From Spironucleus salmonicida (lineage: Eukaryota), in NCBI RefSeq assembly GCF_000497125.1, contig NC_090600.1, positions 620,001-684,000 on the forward strand: a stretch of 64,000 nt of DNA, given 5' to 3'. The position numbers were made by a program, and so were the translations under genes. The first letter of the stretch is position 1; each line of letters begins with the position of its first letter. The notes under the pieces are model-generated. The model was given only the letters and a program-made list of their open reading frames with translations, made no database searches and was not told the origin of the DNA. Below are positions 19,263-56,407 of this stretch, piece by piece.

Positions 19263-19319
19263 CTGCCTAGGTGCGTTTCACCTGATACGGACTACATTGG
19301 GGAGTGGCGCGGACAGCTC

Positions 19320-19350: not shown

Positions 19351-19364
19351 CCTCCCGTCCCTCA

Positions 19365-32778: not shown

Positions 32779-33252
<474 letters not shown>

Positions 33253-35272: not shown

Positions 35273-35374
35273 TGAGGGACGGGAGGCGGCGTAGGGCCGC
35301 GTCTACACCCTACGCCGGAGCTGTCCGCGCCACTCCCCAATGTAGTCCGTATCAGGTGAAACGCACCTAGGCAG

Positions 35375-36239: not shown

Positions 36240-37511
36240 TCTGCAGAGCGCAAGCTGCGACGCGTTCTCCAGATAATATTGTGTTTTGGCATAGAATACT
36301 TAACTATAAAAACATTTAAAAATGAAATATGACGAATGGTGAAAATACATTATGCGTTATAATACAAATTAGGTTAGTTAATAATTTCACCAAAGTTTTG
36401 GCCTGGAATATGCCTATCTACCTATTATATTGATAATAATTCTTTCTACAATAATCGTAAAATACACTTATTTTTTATGTAGACTGTATATACAAGAAGA
36501 AAAAACTCCTAGTAACGGATTATTATATTACTTATTGAATGGAATTATCTTAACTAGTATATAGATATCATTAATATGACATATACATATATTAGACTAA
36601 GTAGAATAATTACTATCTACTTATTTATTTTACTAATACATATAGGCCACTACTAATAGTAATTCTAGTACGAGGTATTTTAGTAATGCCGATCCAAAAT
36701 TTTGTACAGAGGATAAACCAAGCGGACAGGAAACAGTACGTGTACGATCTATCGGCGCTCGATTCAGACCAGATTGAGTCGCTTCTGTCTTACTACGGCT
36801 ATCCCAGCGACATCCAAAACCCCCACTACACCATTTTCGCCTAGCTGCTCCACGAGCTAAGCTCGCTGTGCTGCGAGGTCCAAGCTCTCACACCCCCGCT
36901 TACGATATCTTACTCCGACGACGCGCGGAAAATTATCGTCGTAGACCAGGAGTACTGCAGCGGAAGCGCCGCCGTCATGACGCACAGCACCAAGAGGAAG
37001 GTCATGGGCATGAGCCTAGGGCCCGTGATGCTGGACTTTGACAGCTCCTCCATCCTCAACATAGACGGCCAGGTGGTGTTTACGAACTTTTACACCGTCT
37101 TGGAGGCCGTCCTCAGCGGGAAGGGAAGCCAGGAGGCGACGGAAGACAGCAGCGACGCGTGCGACATAGAAGATCGCACGGCCCGCCAGCATCAGGATCT
37201 GCACGTGAACCTGGACTTCAAGCTGGAGGTCTCGTGCAACTGAGTTATGGTCTGGCCAATTGAGCTACATAGTGAGACGAGTTATTAGCGTAGATTGTAT
37301 TGTATTAAACCGTTTACTCTACACTATGAGTGTGGTCGCAATGATAGAATATGTGCATATGCACACTGAGCTACTGTAGATATTTTGCTGTCCAGGTAGT
37401 GGATATTATGCGAACAGTAGCCCACCTTCCAGAATATAGTATATACCAATTGCTGCCAGATAATCAACTAGTCACACTACACAAATCGTCTTCAAAGGTT
37501 ACATGTAGATA
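36240..37511. repeat. Palindrome arm A (1272 bp; partner 55136-56407)
   Basis: Coordinates sum to 92647. Confidence 0.95.
36686..37243 (+). CDS. Hypothetical protein (185 aa), copy 1
   Basis: MPIQNFVQRINQADRKQY...; GC3-rich. Confidence 0.75.
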
Positions 37512-38364
37512 CTCTTAAATATGCGTTCGTTTCAAATATCACCTATTGGTCCGAAAAATTACTTATGACACAACGAATATGGTAATTCTGATATATTTTT
37601 ACTTATAATCCACATTTTTGCAAAGATAAATTATTTAGGCATAGAATTTGATTTAGTCCAATCTAATTGCTGCGGTTTGATACTAGAAGCAACATAAAGT
37701 TCACTCCAAATTCAACACAAACCTAACTTAATAATATTGTATTGATTTGAATGGAAAATTAGTTTTTAGGTCATTGTTTGTGTAAAATTAAATTTTATGT
37801 GTATAATTATATATGTACGTCAAGATGCAGAAACTATACAAAAATTTAAAGTTATACCAATTACTAGAAGAAATATGTGTGGATTTTAAACTATATTGTA
37901 CAATACGGATATATAACAGTAATTACAAATTATTATAAAATAACAGTTAATAGATGTTATATGTCAGAAGTTAACTCAATTTTATACCAGGCCCAGTAAT
38001 AATTAATGCAAGATTTAACTATATAAATCTGTACTAAACACTTCAAATCATCGTAATATTCTAAAACATGTTAATTAATATAGGAATTTCATAGTAGCAA
38101 ATGGCATCTTATTATTAAAATGTTGATAAAGAATTCTGGCTTTATATTGAGGCTGCAAATATTTTATTACCTTTTAGAATATACGTTAATGTAAAACTTA
38201 TATACTATACATATATGCATAGATATGTCTATAGTCATATACAATTTTTAGTTTAGCGATAATTGATGATTATATTCGTAATTATCTAAAGATCATTATT
38301 TTCTAAATAGTAAATCCCATATAAATAGATAATAATAGTTATTTCTTATTTCTAAATTTTTAAA

Positions 38365-38829
38365 ATGGATCTGTTTGTTCTGCCAAAATCTGGCGAGAGT
38401 TCATTAGATATATAGGAGTAAGTACCATCAAATTTACTAACAATAAAATCATCGACTAATATATTTACATGGATACTAAGAATAATCATAAAAATATTAC
38501 TTTTAATAAAAGAAATTTTAGTTTAGTAACATAATATATAAATTATAACATTTAAGTATAATATTGATATCTTAATGATTTCATAATTTTCCTTGTAATT
38601 AGCAGGAATTATCTTAGTATATTTTTACTTCTATAAGAATGCCATTTTAGGTAAAAAATTAGTATAAATTTGCTTCAGTCTGGAAATTTTAATTATTGAA
38701 GCATTAATTACTGTTTATAATTACTATAGCTGCGATATCTCATGGTTTTGTTAATTATACCGTTTTTTTGTCTGGTGGCAAACTATATTTATTATTATAT
38801 TAAAGTTTTCTCACTTAATTAATAATTGA
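38365..38829 (+). CDS. Small membrane protein, AT-rich paralogue (154 aa)
   Basis: Aligns with 53876-54337 (YFYFYKxxxLGKKL, CFSLEIL, LYRFxVWWQ). Confidence 0.8.
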
Positions 38830-39400
38830 TGTGTATAATATTTTTACTAAATAAGCTGTATTTATTATGTGCAATGTAATATTTATTATGATAGAATTAT
38901 GTAAAAGTATTATTTCTTCCTAAATACAATTTTAGAAAGTCGTATACTAAATAAAGTGACATACTGATCTCTTTACACATTCAATTTTGTATGATATTAG
39001 ATTTATTAGTGTATCAAATTATGTGTTACCATAAAATGATTTAATATTAGACGAATCTAGATGTGATAAATATAAATAAACTAGTCTAATCTAAAAAATG
39101 AATTGAAAATACATTTTAACAGCAGTTTGATAAGATTTAAATTTATTTACTCTCTATCTTCATTATAAACAAAATCCCATAAAGTATTTAGCAGATAATT
39201 GTAGTTTACCTCATGTTAATAAATATTTAATAAAGTTTTATTATACCAAATACTGAAAAATTCAATTTATTTTATTATTAACGTAAATAGTAGTTATATA
39301 TAACCAATTACGTGATATGATATATTAATCTTGGATTTTTTCTTTACTATATTTTATTAAAATTACAGCACTAGTTAATTCTTACTATTCAACGCTTAGA

Positions 39401-39778
39401 ATGCATACCAATATGGCCAGCCAGCTTATCCGGATAGCCGCCAAGATTCTGCTTCTGTGGAAGGAGCTCACGCAGCAGCAGAGCGCAGATACCTTCGCCT
39501 TCAAGTACGACCTCGACATACTGATGTGCTCGCAGATGACCTTGCAGGCCACCGGGGTATTTCTGCTGTACTTCTACTTCTACAAGGACTCAGTTCTGGG
39601 CAAGAAGCTGATTTAGGGGTGCTTCAGCCTGGAGATTCTCAACATCGAGACCATGGTGACCATCTACGAGCACCACTCCCACCCGATCTCGGTGTTCTGC
39701 TAGCTCTACCGCTTCTTGGTCTGGTGGCAGGCGCTCTTCATTTTTATCCTCAAGTTCGCAGACCTAATCAGCGCCTGA
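39401..39778 (+). CDS. Small membrane protein, 5'-truncated or chimeric copy (in-frame ATG also at 39317)
   Basis: Lacks the MDLF N-terminus present in the other two paralogues. Confidence 0.6.
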
Positions 39779-39959
39779 GGTCCGGCCAGCAAGGGCAGAG
39801 CAAGTGAGCATGCAGCGCTTCATCGGGGCTGGGTTGGTTTTCCTGGCGGCAGAATTAACCCGCCTCGTGCGTGAGCCTTCGCCGCCCATACCGAAATTGG
39901 GTCGGGTATATCGTCGCTCGAACAGCATCTGCCGCGAGGGACACGATAAAATGATAGAA

Positions 39960-41000
39960 TCACTTGAAGAGAGGGGCGTCGGGGTTCATGGTGGCGCCGG
40001 TGGCGAGGATGGCCTTCTTGAGCCAGCTGATGGTGTTGGCGGAGTTGAGCCCGGAGGCGCACTCGCCGGTCACGAGGATACCGTCGCAGCCGTCGTAGAT
40101 GGCGTTGGCGATGTCGGACATTTCGGCGATGGTGGGGGTCTCGAGCTCTATGAGGGACTCGAGGTGCTGCGTGGCGCAGACGATCTTGACGTTGTGCTGG
40201 CGGCAGACGTCGGTGATGTACTTCTGGAGGTAGTTCACACGGCAGAGCTTCGTCTCGACGGCGAGGTCGCCACGGGCGATGAGCATGATCTCGCACTCCT
40301 TGCAGATCTCGTGGAGGTCGAGGACGGCGGTGGGCTTCTCGATCTTGGGCATGACCTTGGCGCGGCCGTTGATGATCTTCTTGGCGGCGCGAACGTCGTC
40401 GGCGGTCTGGATGAAGGAAAGCATGATGCACTCAATGCCGATGGCGCAGGCGTTCTCGATGCACTCGACATCGCGGGGGGAGGTGGTGCTCAGGGGGAGC
40501 ACGCGGGCAGGAAGAGCGACACCCTTTCTATCGGAGATGGTGCCCTCGCGGACTACCTTGGTGACGATTTCTCTGATACCGGCAGCGTTGGTGTGGTTCT
40601 TGGTGCACTCGACGACGACGATACCGTCATTGATGAGGATGGCGTCGCCGACCTGGCAGACGTCAAAGAACTCGGGGTGGGGGAGGTACACGCGGGTGTT
40701 GTCACCGTCGAGTGGGGACTCATCGAGGATGAAGGACTGGCCCTTCACGACCTGCTGCGGGCCGCCTGCGAACTTGTTGATTCTGAGCTTGGGGCCCTGG
40801 ATGTCGCCGAAAATGTGGACCTTACGCCCGGCAATCTTCTCGGCCTCCTTGATGTTGTTGTAGTACTCGGTGTGGTCAGCGCAGGTGCCGTGGGAGAAGT
40901 TGATACGGATGGTGGTGATGCCCTGGTTGATGAGCTCGGCAATAACCTTGGGGTCCTTGCAGGAAGGACCGAGCGTGCAGAACATGTTGCATTCTTACAT
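39960..41000 (-). CDS. PYK: Pyruvate kinase, barrel + B domain only, copy 1 (346 aa)
   Basis: CTLGP, RINFSHG, DIQGPKLR, KIEK, ARGDL, ATQHLES; start MQECNMF with TAA=Q. Confidence 0.9.
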
Positions 41001-41895
41001 ATGAAGGAGTGGTAAATAAACCACAAATATTCAAATAATATATAATTTTATTATATCAAAACATACCTAGTATTGTTACTGACATAATCAATATCATTTA
41101 TATTAGATAATTATAAAATAATATTATTAATATAGGTTCTATTTGATAAGTTATAGTAATCATTAAAAGTGTCATATTCATAAAAAATATATTAATTAAT
41201 ATTGTTATTAGTTGGTTTATTCCTAATAATCTATATTGTTTTACATAATAGTATTAATCATGTTTGAGGATCTACCTCTTTTAAAATCAAATTTAATTAA
41301 CTCTTCTTAACAAAATTTTGTATTTTGCTATCAGAATCACATATAACTTATAAATTAAAGTATAATAAAAGTTTCTTTGGAGAGTCCTCCTTAGCAAAAA
41401 TCAATAAAATAAATTTTACCAGAAGTAAGACTTGAAATTCTATATCTATAAATTATTTATTCAATTTTTATAATACTATATTTTTATATTTAAGATGATG
41501 TAAATTCAAAATTATTCTTTAAATGATAATTTGAGCTATATTAGATTTAAAATATAATAATACTTTTTTAATAATAAAGTTATTTTACCGTCATGTGTTA
41601 ATGTAAATTGTATTATTAATATTTAATTATAAATCTTATACTATAATAATTAATATATGGATTTCAAACTTTAGCAAATTTAATAAATTACTAGGATGTA
41701 TAATTTTTACATACAGATCAAATTTGTTCTAAGAGTGATTTATATAATAACAACCCAGAAAAATAGGCCAAATAATCATATATATATATATATATATATA
41801 TATACTTTGTTTAAAATGGAATAGGCATATGTTTGTGATACTTATTTATCGATTTATTAATAATATTTAGTAATATATCAAATATAAAATATAAA

Positions 41896-42162
41896 ATGGG
41901 AGCCGCAGTTTCGCAACTGCACGACGACATCATAGGCGACATCAACGAGGCGAGGCGCGTCACGGTAGCCATCGCTCCCCCTGTGCTAGACAACACCATT
42001 TCCCAGCGCAGCCTGATAAGCCGCACCGTTGACCAACGGCAGATGCAAAGCGGCGCCCTCTCGCAGAGCGCGGACGAGAAGAGAATCTCCCACCGGCGCC
42101 TGGAGAGCGTGCTGGGCTCGATGCAGCATGCCAGCTCGGACAACATCCTGAGCTTCAAGTGA
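41896..42162 (+). CDS. Small protein with MGxxxS N-terminus, copy 1 (88 aa)
   Basis: MGAAVS..., ends AAGTGA. Confidence 0.65.
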   Translation: MGAAVSQLHDDIIGDINEARRVTVAIAPPVLDNTISQRSLISRTVDQRQMQSGALSQSADEKRISHRRLESVLGSMQHASSDNILSFK

Positions 42163-42177
42163 GTGTTCAAAAACCCG

Positions 42178-42426
42178 TCACACAAGGCGCCTGGCCAGTC
42201 GGCGGAGCAGGCCGCACGCCCGCTGGCACCGGCCCTGCGCCGCGGTCATGCCGTGCAGCCGGCGAATCCTGGGGACCGAGACCCCCGTGGCGTCCGAGAT
42301 GTAGACCAGCGAGTACCGGCGGACCACCTCCCGGAAGGCCGCGTCCAGCAGCTTCGCGTCGGCGTGCAGGAGGACGGGGAGCGTGCCCGTGCGCGCGGCG
42401 ATGAATTCCAGCAGCGGCCTGTGCAT
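42178..42426 (-). CDS. Small basic hypothetical protein, copy 1
   Basis: MHRPLLEFIAAR...RRLV; GC3 bias; alternative ATG 15 nt upstream. Confidence 0.5.
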   Translation of the reverse strand: MHRPLLEFIAARTGTLPVLLHADAKLLDAAFREVVRRYSLVYISDATGVSVPRIRRLHGMTAAQGRCQRACGLLRRLARRLV

Positions 42427-42818
42427 TTTTCCGGGCCACATAGGCTAGTTTCCTGGCAGAATACCCTTTTAGTATAGGCGAAAACCTATTTTCCTGCCGG
42501 ACGATTCTGGATTACCTGGTACATTACTCGCATTCGGAGCGGACCGGCAGCGCCGTGCTGGCGTCCGAGCCGGCGAGGGCAAAAGGTGCAGGGCTGGGCT
42601 GGGTCCAGACAGACTAGGGTGCAGCGGGAGGCCGCGAGTGAGGTTAAAAGATAACTCCGCAGGCGCACGGCAGCGGTATACATAATTGGGATCGTCAGAA
42701 TAAATTTATCAGCATTTAGTTAGCCAGGGATAAATCCTCATCACTGGGGGAGCGGAAGCCCAAATTCAATTTCGCGGCGGTCGCCTATATATATAAAAGC
42801 GGGCTGTTTAGCGCAAAA

Positions 42819-45347
42819 ATGCAGACGCTCGACGACCTGTTTCTGACGCTGTTCACGGACCCCGCGCTCGCGGACTACCGCGCCCATCTGTCGCAGGTGC
42901 ACGCAGCGTTCGCGGGCCAGCAGAAGCAGCTAGCGACCCTCCTGGGCACGCTCGAGGACAAGCAGCAGCTCCTCGCGGCCGCCCAGCAGCAGTCGTCCGT
43001 GCTCATCGGCCAGGCGAAGGACCGGGAGATCCGCATCTTCCAGCTCCAGAAGTCGCTCGAGAACGCGATCTCGCAGGAGGAGGCGATGGGCCTCAAGCGC
43101 AAAATCGTCGAGTTCTACGAGGCGAACCAGGCGTACAAGGAGCGCTTGTCCCGCCAGGCTGGTGGCCAGGAGGCGGTGCAGCGGCTGCTCTCCGAGAATG
43201 AGGCCCTCCGCGCCGACAACGCGCGGCTCATGGCCCAGGACCCCGCGGAGCTGCAGCGGCTCCGCGACATGCTGGGGGCCCAACAACTGGAGACCCGCCG
43301 CCTCCAGCATCAGCTGGCGCAGCCCATGCAGGACGACTTCGACGAGCCCCTTGCGGTTCCGGCCGCCCCCGAGCCATCGGCTGGCTTCGAGCAGGCCCCG
43401 GTGCGCGCCCTTAGGGAGTTCGGTCCCCTCTTCGTGCAGTGCCGCACGCTACAGCCGTTCCTTGCGGAGCCCAGCGTCCACCAGTTTGCCGCGGCGTACC
43501 GCCAGGGCGACGTCCAAGCGCTGGTATCCCTGGAGGAGGAAGCCACTCGCGCTGCAAGTCAGGCTGCTGAAAATCTGGACGGCAGGTTCACGGCGGCAGA
43601 GCGCACCCTGGCCGCCATAGGAGAGCTACCGGGAAGCGACGTTACCAGCCTCTGCTACCTGGCAGGCCTGGCCGTGGCCGACGGGCGCCGCGAGCTCCTG
43701 GAGGTGCTTCGGTTGGAGGCGCTGCTTTCCCGCATCCAGCGCAGCGCGCCAGGGTCACCCTCCACCCCGCGTAGCACCCTCTTCACGACGACAAGCTTCC
43801 TAGCAGACCTCGGCACCTTCGTGGCGCAGAACCTTGACAAGGCTGGGGCCTGCCGCGACGCGGGTTTCAAAGAAGCCTACGCCACCCTGCGCAGCGTGTT
43901 CGAGCAGTTTCCGTCGGACACCACCTCGAGCCTGGAAGCGGAGGCCCTGCAGGCGGAATATAGGGCGCTCCTGGACCGCGCATCCGCATTGGCCGCCGTG
44001 GTGGCGGTGCGCTAGCCGGTGGTGATCACGGACCAGCTGAAGGCAGGCATGGCCGAGTTTGTGCAAGAGAACCTCGCTCAGTACGCTAAGCTGCCGGCCG
44101 GGACCGGGGCTGCGGACGAGTTCTACCTCGTACAACTCGCGGTGGCGCAGGACTGCTACACCGAGCAGAGCCTGCGAACGTACCAGGCGCTGGTAGAGCA
44201 GTAGGCGCCCCCGCCGCCCGCAAGGCTGCAGCCGCTCTTCCGGAAGACCCAGCCGATGCCGCTCCCCAAACCGAAGCTCCAGTTCCCGCGCCTGCTGGAG
44301 GTGGACCTCGCGGAGCCGAACATGCGGCGCCTGTACAGTGACTTGTACGCCCAGGTCTGCTCCGCTGAACGCCAGGTCTAGCTACTCCGGGGCGTGGTGA
44401 AGACGGACGAGGAGCGTGGCTCCCTCCAGCGCTTCATCGACGTGTGGTACCAGTTCGGTGCCAGGATCGCCGAGCGCTACGACACCCCTCTGACAGATGA
44501 CGAGGTTGCCAGCGAGGTCAGCGCACTGCGGCCCTACGAGGCCCTCCTAATTCAGACGCACGACGTCTTGTACGACGCCGTGCGCAAGGACCCGGATAGC
44601 ATCAAATACGCTGCCAAGTTTGTGTCTGCATACCGTGAGATGGAGTGGCAGGCTGCCTCTGAAGTGCGCAAGCTTTAGGACCCGAAACCTCTCCCCCCGA
44701 AGAAGCCATTTACGCTTCAGCCGTTACCATCAAGCTCCCAGATCCCAGAGCCCTTTTTGCAAGTCGTGGAGAGCGACCAGGGAGATTCTGCGGCAAGAGA
44801 GCCGCGCAAGAAGAAATCTGCGCGCAAAAAAAGGTCACTACAGGCCGAGCTTAGCGACCTCATCGCCTCTAAGAAGGCCCTGGAGCCCATCGGCCTGCGC
44901 GACGATACCCCCGAAGCCTTCAACCTGCCAGAGCCCCACGTCGTCCCTGCTGAGGTTATGGATGCGCCACAGGCAGTAGCAACCATTGCACATTCCACCT
45001 TGGAGCAGGATTTCCAGGCGGATGACCTGCTGGTGCAGACGGCCATCATGACCATAGTGAATAACCCGGAGCCGGATGTGCTCCACTCTCCGGTGTCCGA
45101 GGTAATATCCCAGCTCCCGGCTTCCCAGTACGCGGAGATAGAGCCCGTCACGACCCCTCGCACTGCCATCCAGCACGAGCGCTCCCCGTCGCCAGAAGTA
45201 TTTGAGGTTGGAAATAGTATCGAGATGTAGCCCGTCACGCAGGAGCTTGACACCGGGTTCGGATTTCAGGATGCCCCGCAACCCGAACCTAATGATGATT
45301 TCTAGATAGGCGGAGGGGACTTGGACTTCGGGGATATAGACTTCTGA
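42819..45347 (+). CDS. Hypothetical coiled-coil protein with acidic tail (842 aa), copy 1
   Basis: Four track ORFs join in one frame through TAG; ends LDFGDIDF-TGA. Confidence 0.85.
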
Positions 45348-45364
45348 CTGAGAGACACTAAACT

Positions 45365-45799
45365 TCACTTCCGCGCGGCGATTACCGCCAGACTTCCATC
45401 ACGCTGCCGGTGCTGACTTTACATGATCCCGTGATTGCACTACCGCACCATGCTCCGTAGGATCGGAGCGCTGCGGTAGGGGGTGCGCTTGGTAGCTTCT
45501 CCAAAGCCGGCAATGCGAAACAGGTCATCAGTAAAGAACGGTTCCTCATCCTCCTCTTTATCTGGCTTCTGTACTCTAGTTTTGGGTGTCTCTGATGCTT
45601 GTCGTAGCTTCTCGTCCATGGTGTCCTGCTGCGCAGTGAGCAGGGTCTGGTACTTGTGTGTTTTCTTCCCATACCACTAATACTGAGGCAGTAGGGAACG
45701 CACCTCACCAGCTTCTACCTATATAAAGTTAATATTCATGCTCTGCTTCATATAATTCCGGTCCTGGTTGAAAGCGAATTCAAAGCGGCTCTGCGCCAT
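45365..45799 (-). CDS. Hypothetical protein (144 aa), copy 1
   Basis: MAQSRFEFAFNQDRNY...; C-rich upstream; ends AAGTGA. Confidence 0.7.
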
Positions 45800-46470
45800 T
45801 CTGGAGGGGAGGGATTCTTAATTGTTTTTAAATAATATAGTGGTCGAAAACGGCGCGTCAGCTCCGAATCCGGGCTGCCTGCTGTATGAGGTGGATGATA
45901 ATATCTATAGAGAAAGAAAAATTAATTAAAACTATTTTAAACTATTCACTTTACCTAAAGAATCATGAATTACCCATAACTTGACAATCTTTATACACTA
46001 AATCTGACGTTTATATTATTACAAGAATATTCTATCTACTCTTAATATATTAATATTATTATATTATTAATAACATTAAATAATTGAAAGATTGATATAC
46101 AAACTAGTGTTATTTGAGAATACAGTAGGATAGCTTCTTATCAAATAACTGAAATAAAGAAAGGAATAATTTAAATTTAATTAAATTGGCACAACGTAAC
46201 ATAGAAATATAGTTGAAGTATTAAAATTCCATTCATTTTTGTTTACCACCAATTTGAAAATCTAAACATATATATACATATATTAATTCTGTAATCTAAT
46301 ATTAGTATGTATATTATATAATATTATATATTCTTTATTGCATCTAATCATGTATTATTTATAATTTTACTAATAACAAAATATACAAAATATTGTATAA
46401 CCATACAATACTAAATATTACCATTATTATATATATAAACTGTATATATACTAATTCCACTTCCCATTGA

Positions 46471-46917
46471 ATGCTTACTATTCCTTAGCGTAATTAATAG
46501 TATTCTGATTTAGCTATGTAGCATGCACTCAAACCATAAAATGTAGGTACGATGGATGAATCATCAGCTCTTGTAGGTACAGGAATTGTTGGTAATGTAA
46601 ATTGCGGTGATGTGATGCAGCTCCAAATTAAAATTGAAAATAATAAAATCACTGATGCAAAGTTTAAGACTTTTGGGTGTGGTGCAGCTGTTGCCAGTTC
46701 CAGTTACGCAACCGAGTTGGTTCAAGGAAAAACTGTAGAAGATGCTAAGAAGCTGCTAAACACAGATATCAGCAAAAAGCTTAGTTTACCACCTGTTAAG
46801 CTCCACTGCTCTCTACTAGCAGAAGAAGCAATTAAGGAGGCAATTAAGGATTTTGAATCAAAAAATTAAAAGAAATAAGGTGAAAACTGTGCTAGCCATG
46901 AGTGTGGGTGCCATTGA
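46471..46917 (+). CDS. IscU: Fe-S cluster scaffold IscU (148 aa)
   Basis: CGDVMQLQI, FKTFGCG, LPPVKLHCS. Confidence 0.95.
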
Positions 46918-47022
46918 TTTAACATGATTTTTATGTATTATAATTATTTAAAGGATTCATAATTTAAAAAATTTTTTTTAGTAAAATCACGCAGAAATTG
47001 TACATTAGATTATACAAGTATG

Positions 47023-47349
47023 TCATACCAATCTTATATGGTTACTTTTTCTTTTTCGTAGTGAAATTTTAACTGTGACCAATATGGTTATTAACAATAT
47101 CACAATACCTAAGAGGCATCCTAAAATAACTCCTGATATTTCAAATTTATCATCAGCTAATTTAAGGCAACCTTTTCCAATCTAAGGTTCATAACCGAGA
47201 AGGCAAAGTCTACATCCAATACTATTACATACTGCACAGTTCTATACTGATAATCCACAGTTACATGGGAAAATAATATTTTTCATATCACATAGTAGTG
47301 CATTGTTATCAGAATCACAATATTATCCGTAAGAAGGGCTACATGTCAT
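47023..47349 (-). CDS. Small cysteine-rich membrane protein (108 aa)
   Basis: CxxC motifs, hydrophobic GVILGCLLGIVILLITILVTV, basic RKRK tail. Confidence 0.75.
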
Positions 47350-48100
47350 TTTTATTTTAATATTATTTAGTATTATTATATTTATAACATTTATTATAAA
47401 TAATGTAAACAACAATTAAAGAAACATAAAAATTAAAATGAATTATAGAATTACACATTTCCTTAATAATTGGTATTTGATATTAAGAAGTAATATATAA
47501 TTCTGCTTATAATTTAAATTAATATAATTTGTTTGAATAATTTTATAGGTTTATGATGGATTATTTTAAATAAGAATATGTTATTATAAAATTTTACTAA
47601 ATTAAGAACCAAATCCTAATTAAAAATAATAATATTTCATGATATTTTTCGTGAATTCCAAAATATACCTAAATTTCATATTTAACTAACAGAATGCATA
47701 ATTAAAACCTTTTAAGTATAAAGTATATGCAAAGGATATTCTAATTTTATTTGAAATTATAATTATCTTAAATATTTATTAGTTTTTTCTTCATATTAAT
47801 TATATAAAATATAATAAATATATAATAAAAACTGCTTATTATGTTTTATAAACTATAAGTTAGATTATAAGTTAACCTTATTACTTATATGACGATCTAC
47901 TCTCATTATAAATAATCAACTTGCTTTCTCTAATAAATCTGCGGCTAGATTAGAATCTCATCTTTTTTAAAACAATAATTCTTTGTAGATTATAGCCGTT
48001 CTCATCCACCTCATACAGCAGGCAGCCCGGATTCGGAGCTGACGCGCCGTTTTCGACCACTATATTATTTAAAAACAATTAAGAATCCCTCCCCTCCAGA

Positions 48101-48535
48101 ATGGCGCAGAGCCGCTTTGAATTCGCTTTCAACCAGGACCGGAATTATATGAAGCAGAGCATGAATATTAACTTTATATAGGTAGAAGCTGGTGAGGTGC
48201 GTTCCCTACTGCCTCAGTATTAGTGGTATGGGAAGAAAACACACAAGTACCAGACCCTGCTCACTGCGCAGCAGGACACCATGGACGAGAAGCTACGACA
48301 AGCATCAGAGACACCCAAAACTAGAGTACAGAAGCCAGATAAAGAGGAGGATGAGGAACCGTTCTTTACTGATGACCTGTTTCGCATTGCCGGCTTTGGA
48401 GAAGCTACCAAGCGCACCCCCTACCGCAGCGCTCCGATCCTACGGAGCATGGTGCGGTAGTGCAATCACGGGATCATGTAAAGTCAGCACCGGCAGCGTG
48501 ATGGAAGTCTGGCGGTAATCGCCGCGCGGAAGTGA
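48101..48535 (+). CDS. Hypothetical protein (144 aa), copy 2
   Basis: Mirror of 45365-45799. Confidence 0.7.
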
Positions 48536-48552
48536 AGTTTAGTGTCTCTCAG

Positions 48553-51081
48553 TCAGAAGTCTATATCCCCGAAGTCCAAGTCCCCTCCGCCTATCTAGAA
48601 ATCATCATTAGGTTCGGGTTGCGGGGCATCCTGAAATCCGAACCCGGTGTCAAGCTCCTGCGTGACGGGCTACATCTCGATACTATTTCCAACCTCAAAT
48701 ACTTCTGGCGACGGGGAGCGCTCGTGCTGGATGGCAGTGCGAGGGGTCGTGACGGGCTCTATCTCCGCGTACTGGGAAGCCGGGAGCTGGGATATTACCT
48801 CGGACACCGGAGAGTGGAGCACATCCGGCTCCGGGTTATTCACTATGGTCATGATGGCCGTCTGCACCAGCAGGTCATCCGCCTGGAAATCCTGCTCCAA
48901 GGTGGAATGTGCAATGGTTGCTACTGCCTGTGGCGCATCCATAACCTCAGCAGGGACGACGTGGGGCTCTGGCAGGTTGAAGGCTTCGGGGGTATCGTCG
49001 CGCAGGCCGATGGGCTCCAGGGCCTTCTTAGAGGCGATGAGGTCGCTAAGCTCGGCCTGTAGTGACCTTTTTTTGCGCGCAGATTTCTTCTTGCGCGGCT
49101 CTCTTGCCGCAGAATCTCCCTGGTCGCTCTCCACGACTTGCAAAAAGGGCTCTGGGATCTGGGAGCTTGATGGTAACGGCTGAAGCGTAAATGGCTTCTT
49201 CGGGGGGAGAGGTTTCGGGTCCTAAAGCTTGCGCACTTCAGAGGCAGCCTGCCACTCCATCTCACGGTATGCAGACACAAACTTGGCAGCGTATTTGATG
49301 CTATCCGGGTCCTTGCGCACGGCGTCGTACAAGACGTCGTGCGTCTGAATTAGGAGGGCCTCGTAGGGCCGCAGTGCGCTGACCTCGCTGGCAACCTCGT
49401 CATCTGTCAGAGGGGTGTCGTAGCGCTCGGCGATCCTGGCACCGAACTGGTACCACACGTCGATGAAGCGCTGGAGGGAGCCACGCTCCTCGTCCGTCTT
49501 CACCACGCCCCGGAGTAGCTAGACCTGGCGTTCAGCGGAGCAGACCTGGGCGTACAAGTCACTGTACAGGCGCCGCATGTTCGGCTCCGCGAGGTCCACC
49601 TCCAGCAGGCGCGGGAACTGGAGCTTCGGTTTGGGGAGCGGCATCGGCTGGGTCTTCCGGAAGAGCGGCTGCAGCCTTGCGGGCGGCGGGGGCGCCTACT
49701 GCTCTACCAGCGCCTGGTACGTTCGCAGGCTCTGCTCGGTGTAGCAGTCCTGCGCCACCGCGAGTTGTACGAGGTAGAACTCGTCCGCAGCCCCGGTCCC
49801 GGCCGGCAGCTTAGCGTACTGAGCGAGGTTCTCTTGCACAAACTCGGCCATGCCTGCCTTCAGCTGGTCCGTGATCACCACCGGCTAGCGCACCGCCACC
49901 ACGGCGGCCAATGCGGATGCGCGGTCCAGGAGCGCCCTATATTCCGCCTGCAGGGCCTCCGCTTCCAGGCTCGAGGTGGTGTCCGACGGAAACTGCTCGA
50001 ACACGCTGCGCAGGGTGGCGTAGGCTTCTTTGAAACCCGCGTCGCGGCAGGCCCCAGCCTTGTCAAGGTTCTGCGCCACGAAGGTGCCGAGGTCTGCTAG
50101 GAAGCTTGTCGTCGTGAAGAGGGTGCTACGCGGGGTGGAGGGTGACCCTGGCGCGCTGCGCTGGATGCGGGAAAGCAGCGCCTCCAACCGAAGCACCTCC
50201 AGGAGCTCGCGGCGCCCGTCGGCCACGGCCAGGCCTGCCAGGTAGCAGAGGCTGGTAACGTCGCTTCCCGGTAGCTCTCCCATGGCGGCCAGGGTGCGCT
50301 CTGCCGCCGTGAACCTGCCGTCCAGATTTTCAGCAGCCTGACTTGCAGCGCGAGTGGCTTCCTCCTCCAGGGATACCAGCGCTTGGACGTCGCCCTGGCG
50401 GTACGCCGCGGCAAACTGGTGGACGCTGGGCTCCGCAAGGAACGGCTGTAGCGTGCGGCACTGCACGAAGAGGGGACCGAACTCCCTAAGGGCGCGCACC
50501 GGGGCCTGCTCGAAGCCAGCCGATGGCTCGGGGGCGGCCGGAACCGCAAGGGGCTCGTCGAAGTCGTCCTGCATGGGCTGCGCCAGCTGATGCTGGAGGC
50601 GGCGGGTCTCCAGTTGTTGGGCCCCCAGCATGTCGCGGAGCCGCTGCAGCTCCGCGGGGTCCTGGGCCATGAGCCGCGCGTTGTCGGCGCGGAGGGCCTC
50701 ATTCTCGGAGAGCAGCCGCTGCACCGCCTCCTGGCCACCAGCCTGGCGGGACAAGCGCTCCTTGTACGCCTGGTTCGCCTCGTAGAACTCGACGATTTTG
50801 CGCTTGAGGCCCATCGCCTCCTCCTGCGAGATCGCGTTCTCGAGCGACTTCTGGAGCTGGAAGATGCGGATCTCCCGGTCCTTCGCCTGGCCGATGAGCA
50901 CGGACGACTGCTGCTGGGCGGCCGCGAGGAGCTGCTGCTTGTCCTCGAGCGTGCCCAGGAGGGTCGCTAGCTGCTTCTGCTGGCCCGCGAACGCTGCGTG
51001 CACCTGCGACAGATGGGCGCGGTAGTCCGCGAGCGCGGGGTCCGTGAACAGCGTCAGAAACAGGTCGTCGAGCGTCTGCAT
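48553..51081 (-). CDS. Hypothetical coiled-coil protein (842 aa), copy 2
   Basis: Mirror of 42819-45347 with one I/M change. Confidence 0.85.
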
Positions 51082-51473
51082 TTTTGCGCTAAACAGCCCG
51101 CTTTTATATATATAGGCGACCGCCGCGAAATTGAATTTGGGCTTCCGCTCCCCCAGTGATGAGGATTTATCCCTGGCTAACTAAATGCTGATAAATTTAT
51201 TCTGACGATCCCAATTATGTATACCGCTGCCGTGCGCCTGCGGAGTTATCTTTTAACCTCACTCGCGGCCTCCCGCTGCACCCTAGTCTGTCTGGACCCA
51301 GCCCAGCCCTGCACCTTTTGCCCTCGCCGGCTCGGACGCCAGCACGGCGCTGCCGGTCCGCTCCGAATGCGAGTAATGTACCAGGTAATCCAGAATCGTC
51401 CGGCAGGAAAATAGGTTTTCGCCTATACTAAAAGGGTATTCTGCCAGGAAACTAGCCTATGTGGCCCGGAAAA

Positions 51474-51722
51474 ATGCACAGGCCGCTGCTGGAATTCATC
51501 GCCGCGCGCACGGGCACGCTCCCCGTCCTCCTGCACGCCGACGCGAAGCTGCTGGACGCGGCCTTCCGGGAGGTGGTCCGCCGGTACTCGCTGGTCTACA
51601 TCTCGGACGCCACGGGGGTCTCGGTCCCCAGGATTCGCCGGCTGCACGGCATGACCGCGGCGCAGGGCCGGTGCCAGCGGGCGTGCGGCCTGCTCCGCCG
51701 ACTGGCCAGGCGCCTTGTGTGA
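51474..51722 (+). CDS. Small basic hypothetical protein, copy 2
   Basis: Mirror of 42178-42426. Confidence 0.5.
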   Translation: MHRPLLEFIAARTGTLPVLLHADAKLLDAAFREVVRRYSLVYISDATGVSVPRIRRLHGMTAAQGRCQRACGLLRRLARRLV

Positions 51723-51737
51723 CGGGTTTTTGAACAC

Positions 51738-52004
51738 TCACTTGAAGCTCAGGATGTTGTCCGAGCTGGCATGCTGCATCGAGCCCAGCACGCTCTCCAG
51801 GCGCCGGTGGGAGATTCTCTTCTCGTCCGCGCTCTGCGAGAGGGCGCCGCTTTGCATCTGCCGTTGGTCAACGGTGCGGCTTATCAGGCTGCGCTGGGAA
51901 ATGGTGTTGTCTAGCACAGGGGGAGCGATGGCTACCGTGACGCGCCTCGCCTCGTTGATGTCGCCTATGATGTCGTCGTGCAGTTGCGAAACTGCGGCTC
52001 CCAT
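51738..52004 (-). CDS. Small MGxxxS protein, copy 2
   Basis: Mirror of 41896-42162. Confidence 0.65.
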   Translation of the reverse strand: MGAAVSQLHDDIIGDINEARRVTVAIAPPVLDNTISQRSLISRTVDQRQMQSGALSQSADEKRISHRRLESVLGSMQHASSDNILSFK

Positions 52005-52634
52005 TTTCTTAAGCGTTATATAATGTATTTATTCCGTATTTTGTAAAGGAAAGTTGTCAAAATTCGGATTTATTTAATATTACAATATTTAAATATTGCG
52101 AAATATTAAAATTGCATTTTCTATTTAGTTTGGTATAAAATACTTTTAATATATAAAATAATATAAAATATTGTAAATTAGTATGAAAAAGCTCATAAAC
52201 TTATTATAATGGTTTATAATAATAGAAAAAGTGTATAGATTGTTATAACATATTTATGTATCATACTCTTTTATTACGCTTCTATCAACCTGATGAAACA
52301 TAGAAACTGAGAATATTGGAGGAATTAATGGGTAAATCATTATACTTATTATTTGGTTATAATTAAGCATAATGTTAATAACTTTCCACATCAAAACTAG
52401 CTATTAGGAAATAATATTCTCCTAATTGTTCATATTTTGTAATTAGCTATTAAATTATTATTTATTCAACGTATATAGGACATATTTACTTATTTTTTAA
52501 TTGCAAATATCTTATTTACAATATATAATTGTGATCAAATAAATATCTGAGAGTAATTATAATTATTAATGAAACAATTCCAAATAACTAATAAGATAAA
52601 TATAATATATTATAACTTATATAAAATAAAATTA

Positions 52635-54259
52635 TTATTTACCACTCCTTCATATGTAAGAATGCAACATGTTCTGCACGCTCGGTCCTTCCTGCAAGGA
52701 CCCCAAGGTTATTGCCGAGCTCATCAACCAGGGCATCACCACCATCCGTATCAACTTCTCCCACGGCACCTGCGCTGACCACACCGAGTACTACAACAAC
52801 ATCAAGGAGGCCGAGAAGATTGCCGGGCGTAAGGTCCACATTTTCGGCGACATCCAGGGCCCCAAGCTCAGAATCAACAAGTTCGCAGGCGGCCCGCAGC
52901 AGGTCGTGAAGGGCCAGTCCTTCATCCTCGATGAGTCCCCACTCGACGGTGACAACACCCGCGTGTACCTCCCCCACCCCGAGTTCTTTGACGTCTGCCA
53001 GGTCGGCGACGCCATCCTCATCAATGACGGTATCGTCGTCGTCGAGTGCACCAAGAACCACACCAACGCTGCCGGTATCAGAGAAATCGTCACCAAGGTA
53101 GTCCGCGAGGGCACCATCTCCGATAGAAAGGGTGTCGCTCTTCCTGCCCGCGTGCTCCCCCTGAGCACCACCTCCCCCCGCGATGTCGAGTGCATCGAGA
53201 ACGCCTGCGCCATCGGCATTGAGTGCATCATGCTTTCCTTCATCCAGACCGCCGACGACGTTCGCGCCGCCAAGAAGATCATCAACGGCCGCGCCAAGGT
53301 CATGCCCAAGATCGAGAAGCCCACCGCCGTCCTCGACCTCCACGAGATCTGCAAGGAGTGCGAGATCATGCTCATCGCCCGTGGCGACCTCGCCGTCGAG
53401 ACGAAGCTCTGCCGTGTGAACTACCTCCAGAAGTACATCACCGACGTCTGCCGCCAGCACAACGTCAAGATCGTCTGCGCCACGCAGCACCTCGAGTCCC
53501 TCATAGAGCTCGAGACCCCCACCATCGCCGAAATGTCCGACATCGCCAACGCCATCTACGACGGCTGCGACGGTATCCTCGTGACCGGCGAGTGCGCCTC
53601 CGGGCTCAACTCCGCCAACACCATCAGCTGGCTCAAGAAGGCCATCCTCGCCACCGGCGCCACCATGAACCCCGACGCCCCTCTCTTCAAGTGATTCTAT
53701 CATTTTATCGTGTCCCTCGCGGCAGATGCTGTTCGAGCGACGATATACCCGACCCAATTTCGGTATGGGCGGCGAAGGCTCACGCACGAGGCGGGTTAAT
53801 TCTGCCGCCAGGAAAACCAACCCAGCCCCGATGAAGCGCTGCATGCTCACTTGCTCTGCCCTTGCTGGCCGGACCTCAGGCGCTGATTAGGTCTGCGAAC
53901 TTGAGGATAAAAATGAAGAGCGCCTGCCACCAGACCAAGAAGCGGTAGAGCTAGCAGAACACCGAGATCGGGTGGGAGTGGTGCTCGTATATGGTCACCA
54001 TGGTATCGATGTTGAGAATCTCCAGGCTGAAGCACCCCTAAATCAGCTTCTTGCCCAGAACTGAGTCCTTGTAGAAGTAGAAGTACAGCAGAAATACCCC
54101 GGTGGCCTGCAAGGTCATCTGCGAGCACATCAGTATGTCGAGGTCGTACTTGAAGGCGAAGGTATCTGCGCTCTGCTGCTGCGTGAGCTCCTTCCACAGA
54201 ATCAGAATCTTGGCGGCTATCCGGATAAGCTGGCTGGCCATATTGGTATGCATTCTAAG
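52635..54259. repeat. Palindrome arm B'
   Basis: Reverse complement of 39395-41019. Confidence 0.95.
52654..53694 (+). CDS. PYK: Pyruvate kinase (truncated form), copy 2
   Basis: Same protein as 39960-41000. Confidence 0.9.
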
Positions 54260-54337
54260 TGTTTTATACTAAAATACACTTATTTATTTTGCGTCTGAAG
54301 AATTATTGTGAGATTCTGGTATGAGAAAAAGATCCAT
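53876..54337 (-). CDS. Small membrane protein, full-length copy (153 aa)
   Basis: MDLFLIPES...MHTNMASQLIR...; N-terminus matches 38365 paralogue. Confidence 0.8.
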
Positions 54338-55135
54338 TTTGAAAAATATAAACTCGATAATGATTGATTCTTAATTAATATAAAAGATTCAAATTTTGTA
54401 TTTTGTTTTCAGTTATTAGTAAATCAAATGAAAACCTATAATACTTTTTTATTATGATATATTTCTTTATAGTAATTAATATATTAAATAAACTATCAAA
54501 ATAAAGTAATACGTTAATATTTAATATAATATGGAATTATGTAATTTTAGTATTTTCAATAAATACGTCCTATATATATATATATATAACTAATTTTATT
54601 TTCATAGTTAATGTTTTGTTTACATAAATCTTCTACTATGAACATTTATTTTAATAATAAGCCTACACCTAATTAGAAATAAAAGTAATATATTCATCGT
54701 AATAAAATTAAAAAAATCACTATTATAATGATTCTCGGCATAAGTTCAGTTTTGGATATAAAAATATCTAAATAATTTAATTTGGTTTAATAAAAATTTA
54801 TTTACTTAAGTTACTTGTATTTATAATTAATCTATAGGATAATATTTATCTATAACACAATATTATACATTTATATAGAAAACTGCAACTTTCAATGGGA
54901 AGAAAAATGGTTTCATAGAAAAAATAGTTAAACTTATTTTTTCTAAACATATATTTTATTTCTTATTTAAATATAGATATTTCAGTGATTATTAAAAATT
55001 TAATTCATTTGCATTAAAATAAGATTTCCAGTGGAATTTGATAATACTATATAGTTGAAAATAAAATATCACATCAACTATTAATCATAAAGTTTAACTA
55101 TACATTTTTACTATATAAGAAATTATTTTTAGGAT

Positions 55136-56407
55136 TATCTACATGTAACCTTTGAAGACGATTTGTGTAGTGTGACTAGTTGACTATCTGGCAGCAATTG
55201 GTATATACTATCTTCTGGAAGGTGGGCTACTGTTTGCATAATATCCACTACCTGGACAGCAAAATATCTACAGTAGCTCAGTGTGCATATGCACATATTC
55301 TATCATTGCGACCACACTCATAGTGTAGAGTAAACGGTTTAATACAATACAATCTACGCTAATAACTCGTCTCACTATGTAGCTCAATTGGCCAGACCAT
55401 AACTCAGTTGCACGAGACCTCCAGCTTGAAGTCCAGGTTCATGTGCAGATCCTGATGCTGGCGGGCCGTGCGATCTTCTATGTCGCACGCGTCGCTGCTG
55501 TCTTCCGTCGCCTCCTGGCTTCCCTTCCCGCTGAGGACGGCCTCCAAGACGGTGTAAAAGTTCGTAAACACCACCTGGCCGTCTATGTTGAGGATGGAGG
55601 AGCTGTCAAAGTCCAGCATCACGGGCCCTAGGCTCATGCCCATGACCTTCCTCTTGGTGCTGTGCGTCATGACGGCGGCGCTTCCGCTGCAGTACTCCTG
55701 GTCTACGACGATAATTTTCCGCGCGTCGTCGGAGTAAGATATCGTAAGCGGGGGTGTGAGAGCTTGGACCTCGCAGCACAGCGAGCTTAGCTCGTGGAGC
55801 AGCTAGGCGAAAATGGTGTAGTGGGGGTTTTGGATGTCGCTGGGATAGCCGTAGTAAGACAGAAGCGACTCAATCTGGTCTGAATCGAGCGCCGATAGAT
55901 CGTACACGTACTGTTTCCTGTCCGCTTGGTTTATCCTCTGTACAAAATTTTGGATCGGCATTACTAAAATACCTCGTACTAGAATTACTATTAGTAGTGG
56001 CCTATATGTATTAGTAAAATAAATAAGTAGATAGTAATTATTCTACTTAGTCTAATATATGTATATGTCATATTAATGATATCTATATACTAGTTAAGAT
56101 AATTCCATTCAATAAGTAATATAATAATCCGTTACTAGGAGTTTTTTCTTCTTGTATATACAGTCTACATAAAAAATAAGTGTGTTTTACGATTATTGTA
56201 GAAAGAATTATTATCAATATAATAGGTAGATAGGCATATTCCAGGCCAAAACTTTGGTGAAATTATTAACTAACCTAATTTGTATTATAACGCATAATGT
56301 ATTTTCACTATTCGTCATATTTCATTTTTAAATGTTTTTATAGTTAAGTATTCTATGCCAAAACACAATATTATCTGGAGAACGCGTCGCAGCTTGCGCT
56401 CTGCAGA
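55136..56407. repeat. Palindrome arm A'
   Basis: Reverse complement of 36240-37511. Confidence 0.95.
55404..55961 (-). CDS. Hypothetical protein (185 aa), copy 2
   Basis: Mirror of 36686-37243 with a V/M change. Confidence 0.75.

Follow-up and report, generated by a model that had tools for sequence, protein, structure and literature searches.

Concerted evolution of duplicated genes can be confined to the coding block, with the flanking and regulatory DNA free to diverge. Mammalian sex-chromosome palindromes (human Y P1-P8 and those of the primate X) carry genes in inverted arms that are more than 99% identical and surround a unique spacer. The arms of primate X palindromes were reported to have a higher GC content than the flanks, with GC-biased gene conversion given as the cause (PMC8981503); the spacers of mammalian sex-chromosome palindromes are described as structurally unstable (PMC8327919), and inversions between their arms as rare (PMC3723533). 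In the diplomonad Giardia lamblia, 14 pairs of identical vsp ORFs were reported, arranged head-to-head or tail-to-tail at distances of 2190-3847 bp, and with flanks that are identical until they diverge abruptly 139-729 bp from the coding region. That report notes no identical genes beyond such inverted pairs, and its description of the pairs invokes neither gene conversion nor composition (PMC2996952). For Spironucleus salmonicida, 19.2% of the assembly was reported to lie in duplicates of at least 2 kb and at least 95% identity, which are mostly one gene long and have 44.7% GC compared with 30.7% elsewhere (PMC9509377). The account given there of these duplicates includes no orientation, nesting, edges or conversion argument for genes other than those of surface proteins, and mentions gene conversion only for cysteine-rich surface families (PMC9509377). 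In 2007 a class of high-GC3 genes with weak expression was reported from GC-rich regions; according to that report, neither mutation bias nor codon selection accounts for it (PMC1805757).

We describe here a 20-kb segmental palindrome in a window of 64,000 nucleotides from a nuclear chromosome of the fish parasite S. salmonicida (the whole stretch analysed; positions are counted from its first letter). The locus is of a kind already known from the primate X and Y palindromes, the Giardia inverted vsp pairs and the published GC-rich duplicates of S. salmonicida, and it is an instance of that last class as reported (PMC9509377). An earlier sequence-only reading had likened it to the mammalian Y palindromes; the likeness held for inverted near-identical arms around a unique centre, but not for continuity, as the arms are split into three blocks with edges hugging start codons. 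Unlike the mammalian palindromes, the locus is much smaller (blocks of 1.3-4 kb, 20 kb in total), lies in a diplomonad and is described here from one sequence; its identity is limited to three gene blocks between unalignable, putatively promoter-bearing spacers, and its GC contrast is far stronger (~60% against 20%). The arm GC excess described for primate X palindromes was likewise found, except in the AT-rich first 446 bp of the outermost block, A. With the Giardia vsp pairs, as described, the locus shares a diplomonad host, inverted identical or near-identical ORFs and abrupt flank divergence near the coding regions. The innermost arms (C/C', 2.1 kb apart) are spaced much like the Giardia pairs, with about 2-4 kb of intervening DNA, whereas B/B' (11.6 kb) and A/A' (17.6 kb) are much farther apart. 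In contrast to Giardia, the arm genes are not surface-antigen genes (a pyruvate kinase and six genes without a family), and the sole Cys-rich membrane gene is single-copy in the core; moreover, up to four genes share a block, and the blocks are nested in three tiers around a centre that codes for a protein (IscU). Compared with concerted evolution confined to coding sequence, the locus adds a mirrored multi-block layout.

Layout and gene content of the palindrome

An inverted-repeat search of the window identified three pairs, 41893-45924/47976-52007 (4032 nt), 39382-41019/52635-54272 (1638 nt) and 36233-37522/55125-56414 (1290 nt), whose blocks were measured by self-BLAST and gapped alignment. 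Block A (36240-37522, 41.8% GC, gene A1) aligned with A' (55125-56407, gene A1') over 1283 bp with 9 differences (99.3% identity). Block B (39378-41019, 57.8% GC), which holds B1 and a pyruvate kinase gene as a convergent pair, aligned with B' (52635-54275, the kinase copy and B1') over 1642 bp with 7 mismatches and one gap (99.5% identity). Block C (41893-45901, 61.4% GC), with genes C1, C2, C3 and C4, aligned with C' (47999-52007), with C4', C3', C2' and C1', over 4009 bp with 2 differences (99.95% identity). Summed over the three blocks, the arms differ at 19 sites, and mirror order and orientation are strict. These searches bore out the sequence-only reading of three concentric inverted pairs around a 2.1-kb single-copy core, and its sizes of 1272, 1625 and 4006 bp were near the re-measured ones. 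The core (45902-47998, 2097 bp, 24% GC) showed no mirror similarity when its halves were compared with each other.

The arms are discontinuous, each being broken by members of two pairs of unalignable spacers of 627-1855 bp. The outer pair comprises S1L on the left (37523-39377, 1855 bp, 22% GC) and S1R on the right (54276-55124, 849 bp, 18% GC). The inner pair comprises S2L (41020-41892, 873 bp, 17% GC), which is the divergent promoter region of the kinase and C1 and holds an (AT)13 run at 41778-41804, and S2R (52008-52634, 627 bp, 19% GC). The best local alignments of the spacer pairs scored 39-44, within the range of 30 shuffles (means 38-41, maxima 46-68), in agreement with the earlier description of the spacers as AT-rich, unequal and without obvious match. 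Self-BLAST found no other copies of spacer DNA within the window. We identified in S1L an AT-rich paralogue of B1 that had been missed before (~38371-38826 on the plus strand; tblastn match 38521-38823), with 59% amino-acid identity to B1 over 101 residues (E 5e-39). This paralogue lies 575 bp from B1, outside the block, and has a GC3 of 0.22 compared with 0.85 for B1, a gap of 0.63. A search of S1R for a remnant of it (tblastn, E up to 50) gave noise only, and the Pfam scan of the same spacer gave no match.

The window reads in genetic code table 6, a point absent from the sequence-only reading; the IscU frame, for example, contains TAA and TAG, read as Q. The gene map, obtained from frame-specific GC3 and tblastn, agreed with the seven duplicated genes recognized before. 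A1 (36686-37243, plus strand, 185 aa) has a GC3 of 0.7-0.88 in the plus frame and no Pfam family, and A1' (55404-55961, minus) differs from it in coding sequence solely by V174M. B1 (39401-39778, plus, 125 aa) is hydrophobic and without a family, and B1' (53876-54253, minus) differs from it by L18I, E83D and one synonymous change. The short pyruvate kinase (39960-41000, minus, 346 aa; PF00224, E 2e-73) consists of the barrel domain only, no C-terminal domain being found when looked for, and its copy (52654-53694, plus) is identical. In block C, where genes were called on frame-specific GC3, we found C1 (41896-42162, plus, 88 aa), C2 (42178-42441, minus, 87 aa), C3 (42819-45347, plus, 842 aa), which matches the S. 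salmonicida protein V6M3X1, and C4 (45365-45799, minus, 144 aa). Their counterparts are C4' (48101-48535, plus), C3' (48553-51081, minus), C2' (51459-51722, plus) and C1' (51738-52004, minus); I267M in C3' is the sole coding difference between C and C'. Altogether, the two copies are identical for four of the seven genes and differ by 1-3 codons for the other three, which amounts to five coding differences in 1,817 codons (one synonymous, four non-synonymous). Because synonymous sites are nearly identical, the identity is not explicable by protein-level selection. The core carries IscU (46471-46917, plus, 148 aa; NifU_N, E 9e-45) and a gene for a Cys-rich membrane protein of 108 aa with one transmembrane segment (47023-47349, minus), as had been recognized earlier.

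The Pfam scan covered code 6 ORFs of at least 130 aa in the left arm, the core and the right spacers, with the mirror-image right-arm copies set aside. It returned PK, NifU_N and LRR families only. Among the seven arm genes, pyruvate kinase alone has a family. None of the scanned ORFs belonged to a transposase, integrase or reverse transcriptase family, which fits the earlier remark that no transposase or recombinase is visible. The 50 nt beyond 36240 and beyond 56407 have no direct repeat in common that would suggest a target-site duplication, and comparison of the block ends revealed neither a shared terminal repeat nor a target-site duplication.

Self-BLAST further identified two near-identical inverted pairs elsewhere in the window, P1 (0.31% divergence at 19.6 kb) and P2 (1.19% at 13.9 kb), which the sequence-only reading had missed. 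All five near-identical pairs of the window are thus inverted; P1 and P2 interleave and are not nested. One P2 copy has its edge inside a gene, of which only the last ~95 codons are kept (residues 179-273), indicating that sharp edges in this genome can be original duplication breakpoints.

Block edges, arm differences and base composition

At the block edges, identity gives way to random similarity within a few bases, and three of the six edges sit 3-19 nt upstream of start codons. In block B identity is solid from 6 nt before the B1 ATG to 19 nt upstream of the kinase ATG, and in block C it begins 3 nt ahead of the C1 ATG. The distance from edge to coding sequence is 3-446 nt over all blocks and 3-102 nt for the tier formed by C, the core and C'. 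Pooling five blocks (A, B, C, P1 and P2), we found 26 differences in 1200 bp (2.2%) within the outer 120 bp of the blocks and 17 in 9689 bp (0.18%) in the interiors, a ~12-fold enrichment (Fisher p 6e-15) that is partly built in by the BLAST-defined block ends. The enrichment was individually significant in A, B and P2. Six of the nine differences in block A lie within its last 111 bp, all eight in block B lie at or left of 39664, and those in block C are at 43619 and 45899. Such edge enrichment could alternatively stem from a replicative rearrangement with error-prone synthesis close to its breakpoints. Overall divergence differs among A, B and C (chi-square p 9e-5); with the edges removed, the interiors (2/1043 in A, 2/1402 in B and 1/3769 in C) are not clearly different. 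Inside the palindrome, divergence grows with arm separation, from 0.05% (2.1 kb) through 0.49% (11.6 kb) to 0.70% (17.6 kb), a gradient of three points that consists mostly of edge sites and breaks down across all five window pairs.

Blocks B and C have 58-61% GC including their non-coding parts, and the arm blocks overall 42-61%, compared with 17-24% for spacers and core. Non-coding DNA has a GC content of 0.47-0.59 within B and C but of 0.17-0.22 in the spacers and in the core outside its genes, and the GC step in B and C (from about 0.2 to at least 0.55) matches the identity edges to within 100 bp. GC3 of the core genes is 0.29 for IscU and 0.20 for the Cys-rich gene. Over the window, duplicated DNA has 52.9% GC and the rest 30.7%. 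Two exceptions were found: the first 446 bp of block A (26% GC) and 1.4 kb of pair P1 (32% GC) are AT-rich, yet at least 99.5% identical. GC-rich genes that are single-copy in the window also exist, such as a Myb gene with a GC3 of 0.84. High GC may predate duplication.

Origin and maintenance of the arms

A single duplication with plain divergence cannot yield both unalignable spacers and blocks that are 99.3-99.95% identical. From the observed structure, edges, composition and pattern of differences, we infer that an inverted duplication is old, that its gene blocks evolved in concert through GC-biased arm-to-arm conversion, and that promoter-bearing spacers escaped, an explanation that we favour with slightly better than even confidence. 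It would have started with the inverted duplication of a ~9-10 kb stretch with seven genes, beside the core of IscU and the Cys-rich protein. Recombinational repair between the arms (intrachromosomal gene conversion) would have held the three blocks almost identical, and a GC bias of this conversion would have let the converting blocks drift to 58-61% GC (GC3 0.6-0.9) on a genome background of ~31%. The spacers, presumably long AT-rich intergenic stretches with the promoters of outward-facing genes, would have ceased to be included in conversion tracts, the probable trigger being an insertion or deletion, for which the left-only B1 paralogue is a candidate, and would then have diverged or turned over until unalignable. 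Erosion of the block edges would proceed inward across neutral sequence and halt at sequence under selection, which would leave three edges close upstream of start codons. The outcome would be two near-identical coding copies per gene, with unrelated upstream regions for each copy of at least B1, the kinase and C1. The sequence-only reading had proposed arm-to-arm conversion, nested inversions or both. Its conversion half gains support from the mirrored near-identical blocks with unalignable spacers, the edge-dense differences, the near-identical synonymous sites and the GC step in B and C, all of which are consistent with conversion at the level of sequence. As for the other half, arm-to-arm crossovers would hypothetically flip the enclosed segments with the mirror order unaltered.

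Ranked as the main rival, and in our judgement unlikely, is one recent complex rearrangement, e.g. replication template switching, that copied three blocks inverted, omitted the left spacers and inserted different DNA between the copies, with no ongoing conversion and with genes that were GC-rich beforehand. The razor-sharp block edges are in keeping with such an event, the P2 edge within a gene indicates that copy-and-paste with arbitrary breakpoints occurs, the high identity of A and P1 extends to their AT-rich parts, as it should in young copies, and the block interiors do not clearly differ in divergence. Extra mutations near the breakpoints of replicative rearrangements could also mimic edge decay. 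However, one event would have to replace both spacer pairs with 627-1855 bp of unrelated AT-rich DNA that is uncopied elsewhere in the window, and arbitrary breakpoints would rarely place three of six edges 3-19 nt upstream of start codons. A recent rearrangement also leaves unexplained the 0.63 GC3 gap between B1 and its neighbouring paralogue and the genome-wide GC-richness of duplicates, as reported (PMC9509377).

We consider it very improbable that three separate duplications of GC-rich gene cassettes were each mirrored and inverted by chance. The published S. salmonicida duplicates are described as mostly one gene long (PMC9509377), the blocks differ in overall divergence, and the inversion of 5/5 window pairs might hint at a mechanism favouring nearby inverted insertion; against this, the prior for three independent pairs being fully nested and all inverted is 1/120, and P1 and P2 interleave instead of nesting. 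For such insertions, the scanned ORFs provided no family of transposases, integrases or reverse transcriptases, and the block ends had neither a common terminal repeat nor a target-site duplication; an RNA intermediate is excluded for block C, since its four genes lie on both strands. The least credible source of the locus is an assembly artefact, such as a long-read fold-back chimera or an incorrect join, although palindromes are described as a trouble spot for assemblers (PMC8327919). A fold-back predicts a perfect uninterrupted palindrome, whereas the arms of this one differ at 19 sites, are interrupted by four unique spacers and enclose a unique core of 2.1 kb with two genes. Moreover, each repeated block is at most 4 kb long with unique DNA on its flanks, the published assembly is described as built from reads of 14.6 kb N50 and optical maps and polished with Illumina data (PMC9509377), and V6M3X1, the protein matching C3, comes from a 1.73-Mb contig.

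Implications for Spironucleus and other diplomonads

On the preferred explanation of GC-biased conversion, we tentatively propose, at somewhat less than even confidence, that the GC-rich gene islands of S. salmonicida may have arisen through GC-biased conversion acting over a long time between inverted gene copies, with small palindromes copy-correcting coding sequence in a rarely sexual tetraploid and each copy keeping its own promoter. If this is true, the locus would be its cleanest natural experiment, with B1 set against an AT-rich neighbouring paralogue, and GC-rich non-coding block DNA against 17-22% GC outside. It would also link two unconnected reports, that of the high-GC3 gene class and that of a fifth of the assembly being near-identical GC-rich gene-sized duplicates; both could be due to a single mechanism, one already on record for the sex-chromosome palindromes of primates. 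For knock-outs, expression measurements and read mapping in S. salmonicida, it would matter that copies with identical coding sequence have unrelated promoters. Finally, the locus carries the Giardia-style arrangement of identical inverted pairs over to a second lineage of diplomonads, and there to housekeeping and orphan genes. This suggests that inverted pairs are generally a feature of diplomonad chromosomes, beyond the genes of antigenic variation.

Genetic code and gene content

In the window, gene-sized stretches of 50-68% GC alternate with stretches of 17-25% GC. When the DNA was read with translation table 11, TAA and TAG codons interrupted the GC-rich stretches; with table 6, in which both encode Gln, a frame of 842 codons was open at 42819-45347. 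The 842-aa protein C3 was identical to UniRef V6M3X1 from Spironucleus salmonicida over residues 1-626 except for one substitution, and the remainder of V6M3X1, an older model, looks frame-shifted beyond residue 626. Under code 6 the IscU frame covers the full NifU_N domain (E 9e-45), with TAA and TAG codons in frame within it. Judged from the sequence, the window can be taken for nuclear DNA from S. salmonicida or a very close relative, using code 6. A search of the whole window returned no tRNA or Rfam family. Since TGA is the only stop under code 6, long open frames in the AT-rich DNA of this genome are no evidence of genes. Upstream of the ATG that both copies of the small gene C1 share, the frame has no stop for about 130-140 codons (41495-41895 and 52005-52433), and these two extensions bear no relation to one another.

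Genes were mapped by frame-specific GC3 together with tblastn under code 6, and the start codons of the small genes were placed by frame-specific GC3 and the point where identity begins. This map recovered the seven duplicated genes that the sequence-only reading had proposed: A1 (185 aa) in block A; B1 (125 aa, hydrophobic) and a pyruvate kinase (346 aa) in block B; and C1 (88 aa), C2 (87 aa), C3 and C4 (144 aa) in block C. Only the pyruvate kinase (1/7), at 39960-41000 (-) and 52654-53694 (+), belongs to a Pfam family (PF00224, E 2e-73). It consists of the barrel domain alone, and its match to solved pyruvate kinases of at least 470 aa is limited to about their first 340 residues. Similarly short forms are on record: that of Trepomonas has 327 aa, and that of Hexamita inflata 341 aa with 43% identity. 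The Giardia form has 555 aa with the C-terminal domain present; the next-best matches are alphaproteobacterial. Pfam searches at E up to 1 gave no credible match for A1, B1, C1, C2, C4, the Cys-rich core gene or a diverged B1 paralogue, and the spacer ORFs yielded nothing in Pfam. An alignment-free structure prediction for A1 produced no usable fold (mean pLDDT 39).

The single-copy core indeed holds IscU and, as had been read, a Cys-rich protein, here of 108 aa with one transmembrane segment. The reported lack of a transposase also held: searches for transposase, integrase and reverse transcriptase families found none among all ORFs of at least 130 aa in the left arm, the core and the right spacers, nor among the 34 of 77 such ORFs searched in the rest of the window.

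Elsewhere, two Peptidase_C1 domains (papain-family cysteine proteases, E 2e-100) lie in a code-6 frame of 1015 codons at 15176-18220 (+), which is either a tandem diverged gene pair without a TGA between its members or a two-domain protein.

Layout of the inverted pairs and pattern of their differences

Pair boundaries were located by repeat search and self-BLAST and then refined by gapped alignment, which gave three concentric, near-identical inverted pairs. The outer pair A lies at 36240-37522 / 55125-56407 (1283 bp, 9 differences), pair B at 39378-41019 / 52635-54275 (1642 bp, 7 mismatches and 1 gap) and the inner pair C at 41893-45901 / 47999-52007 (4009 bp, 2 differences), with 2097 bp of core between C and C'. 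The outer spacers, between A and B, measure 1855 bp on the left (S1L) and 849 bp on the right (S1R), and the inner spacers, between B and C, 873 bp (S2L) and 627 bp (S2R). All are AT-rich (17-22% GC), unequal and unmatched, as first described: the best local alignments of S1L with S1R and of S2L with S2R, in both orientations, scored within the range of 30 shuffles. Tandem repeats do not make up the spacers, in which only short AT-rich arrays were found (score at most 54). At the block ends, neither common terminal motifs nor target-site duplications were seen.

Two further inverted pairs lie outside the palindrome, P1 at 7602-10211 / 29836-32445 (2610 bp, 8 differences) and P2 at 19002-20346 / 34291-35636 (1345/1346 bp, 16 differences). 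These two are interleaved rather than nested, and inverted orientation is common to all five near-identical pairs of the window. Between the right copies of P1 and P2, a low-complexity array of about 500 bp (32740-33252) consists of short AT-rich repeats, whose translation gives long tracts of Y, I and L. Together, the near-identical inverted pairs occupy 21.8 kb of the 64-kb window.

At every block edge, identity drops to the random level over a few bases. Block C starts 3 nt upstream of the C1 ATG and ends 102 nt 5' of the C4 ATG; solid identity in block B begins 6 nt ahead of the B1 ATG, and the block ends 19 nt 5' of the kinase ATG. Because the outermost genes of B and C read inward, the unalignable spacers are 5' intergenic regions, and thus B1, the kinase and C1 each have upstream DNA that is unrelated between the two copies. 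Short tail-to-tail intergenic stretches, and one head-to-head stretch of 377 bp within C, are identical in both arms.

Across the five pairs, the outer 120 bp held 26 differences in 1200 bp (2.2%) and the interiors 17 in 9689 bp (0.18%), a contrast (Fisher p 6e-15) that is in part inherent in the ends of BLAST alignments. The enrichment was significant singly in A, B and P2, and the graded edges are real both in the final 111 bp of A (6 mismatches) and near the right end of P2 (8 in 43 bp). The left edge of P2 falls inside a gene of 273 codons (18441-19259 (+)), of which the second copy (35375-35656 (-)) keeps about the last 90-95 codons (residues 179-273), with TGA stops in frame upstream. 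This truncated copy is the product of a duplication breakpoint, indicating that arbitrary duplication breakpoints occur in this genome.

Between the arms, the seven genes differ at 5 sites in 1,817 codons, and four of the five differences are non-synonymous. Synonymous sites are as identical as the remainder, so the likeness of the arms cannot be put down to selection on the proteins. The block interiors (2/1043 in A, 2/1402 in B and 1/3769 in C) show no clear contrast with one another. Divergence grows with arm distance in the three nested pairs, but the trend is lost when all five are taken together.

GC islands and a diverged B1 paralogue

In B and C, GC jumps from about 0.2 to at least 0.55 at the edges of identity, within one 100-bp window. 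The contrast extends to non-coding DNA, with 0.47-0.59 inside blocks B and C and 0.17-0.22 in the spacers and the non-coding core. GC3 is 0.62-0.93 in the duplicated genes, 0.29 in IscU and 0.20 in the Cys-rich core gene. Over the whole window, duplicated DNA has 52.9% GC and the remainder 30.7%. Some AT-rich DNA is near-identical all the same, as in the 446 bp at the start of A and a 1.4-kb portion of P1. A leucine-rich repeat (LRR) gene and an adjoining Myb-domain gene (58999-59745 (-) and 60139-60657 (-); GC3 0.80 and 0.84) are GC-rich, yet the window contains no near-identical copy of either; the LRR gene shares 75% DNA identity with the duplicated LRR gene of P2. Either these two genes speak against a link between GC and duplication, or they have copies elsewhere in the genome.

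A third, diverged copy of B1 was identified by tblastn in S1L only, at about 38371-38826 (+) (59% amino-acid identity, E 5e-39). Its GC3 is 0.22, compared with 0.85 for B1, which starts 575 bp downstream of it. In S1R, both inner spacers and the initial part of S1L, a tblastn search for remnants of this paralogue gave only noise at E up to 50. Its absence from S1R accounts for about half of the difference in length between the outer spacers.

Origin of the palindrome and published parallels

We lean towards an old inverted duplication of the seven genes around the IscU core, whose blocks would have been homogenised by GC-biased conversion while the spacers escaped and the edges eroded. On this account, which draws on sequence comparison within this one genome, an ancient inverted duplication would have left the seven-gene segment on both sides of the core, and GC-biased intrachromosomal gene conversion would have kept the gene blocks alike. 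The promoter-bearing spacers, lying outside the conversion tracts, may then have diverged or turned over, and the block edges may have eroded inward until constrained sequence was reached. Such a history would explain at once why the blocks are mirrored in order, why the spacers do not align, why the edges are graded and lie close to start codons, and why the GC islands take in non-coding DNA. A recent complex rearrangement, in which three blocks were copied and other DNA was placed between them, is a less likely but serious competitor: it fits the sharp edges and the near-identical AT-rich stretches, but leaves unexplained the position of edges at start codons, the replacement of both spacer pairs and the GC contrast. 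Hence the proposal in the sequence-only reading that the arms are kept alike by arm-to-arm conversion is the one we somewhat favour for the gene blocks, with the rearrangement still standing as a minority alternative. As for the inversions it also envisaged, a crossover between any arm pair would leave the mirror order unchanged.

Three independent cassette duplications appear improbable, given that full nesting with all three pairs inverted has a prior of only 1/120 if the pairs are independent, and that no mobile-element signature was found in the ORFs scanned or at the block ends. An assembly artefact is unlikely too, as the core and spacers are unique, the arms carry 19 differences and all repeats are at most 4 kb. 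An RNA-mediated (cDNA) origin was rejected for block C because its four genes lie on both strands.

The locus is of a known kind. Earlier publications describe palindromes homogenised by GC-biased conversion, identical gene pairs in inverted orientation in a sister diplomonad and, in S. salmonicida itself, duplicates that are GC-rich and gene-sized. In primate X palindromes, the arms are GC-richer than their flanks owing to GC-biased arm-to-arm conversion (PMC8981503), and the spacers are reported as structurally unstable (PMC8327919); in a human Y palindrome, conversion is GC-biased and inversions are rare (PMC3723533). In Giardia lamblia, 14 identical vsp gene pairs are inverted, lie 2.2-3.8 kb apart and diverge abruptly at 139-729 bp from the coding sequence; identical genes are described as confined to such pairs (PMC2996952). 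Duplicates at least 2 kb long and at least 95% identical account for 19.2% of the S. salmonicida assembly; they are 'most commonly' one gene long and have a mean GC of 44.7% against 30.7% for the remainder (PMC9509377). The portions of that source considered here raise gene conversion solely for cysteine-rich surface families and do not address orientation or nesting; beyond this remark, the Spironucleus literature searched yielded no relevant paper on inversion, as judged by title, or on palindromes or gene conversion. The Hexamita inflata genome paper mentions none of the terms inverted, palindrome and gene conversion. A 2007 survey described weakly expressed high-GC3 genes in GC-rich regions, for which neither mutational nor selective scenarios offered an easy explanation (PMC1805757). 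No description of the three-tier mosaic layout or of the B1 contrast was found in the Spironucleus literature searched. What this locus adds is that layout, with its edges at start codons, and the contrast between B1 and its paralogue on a sub-kilobase scale.
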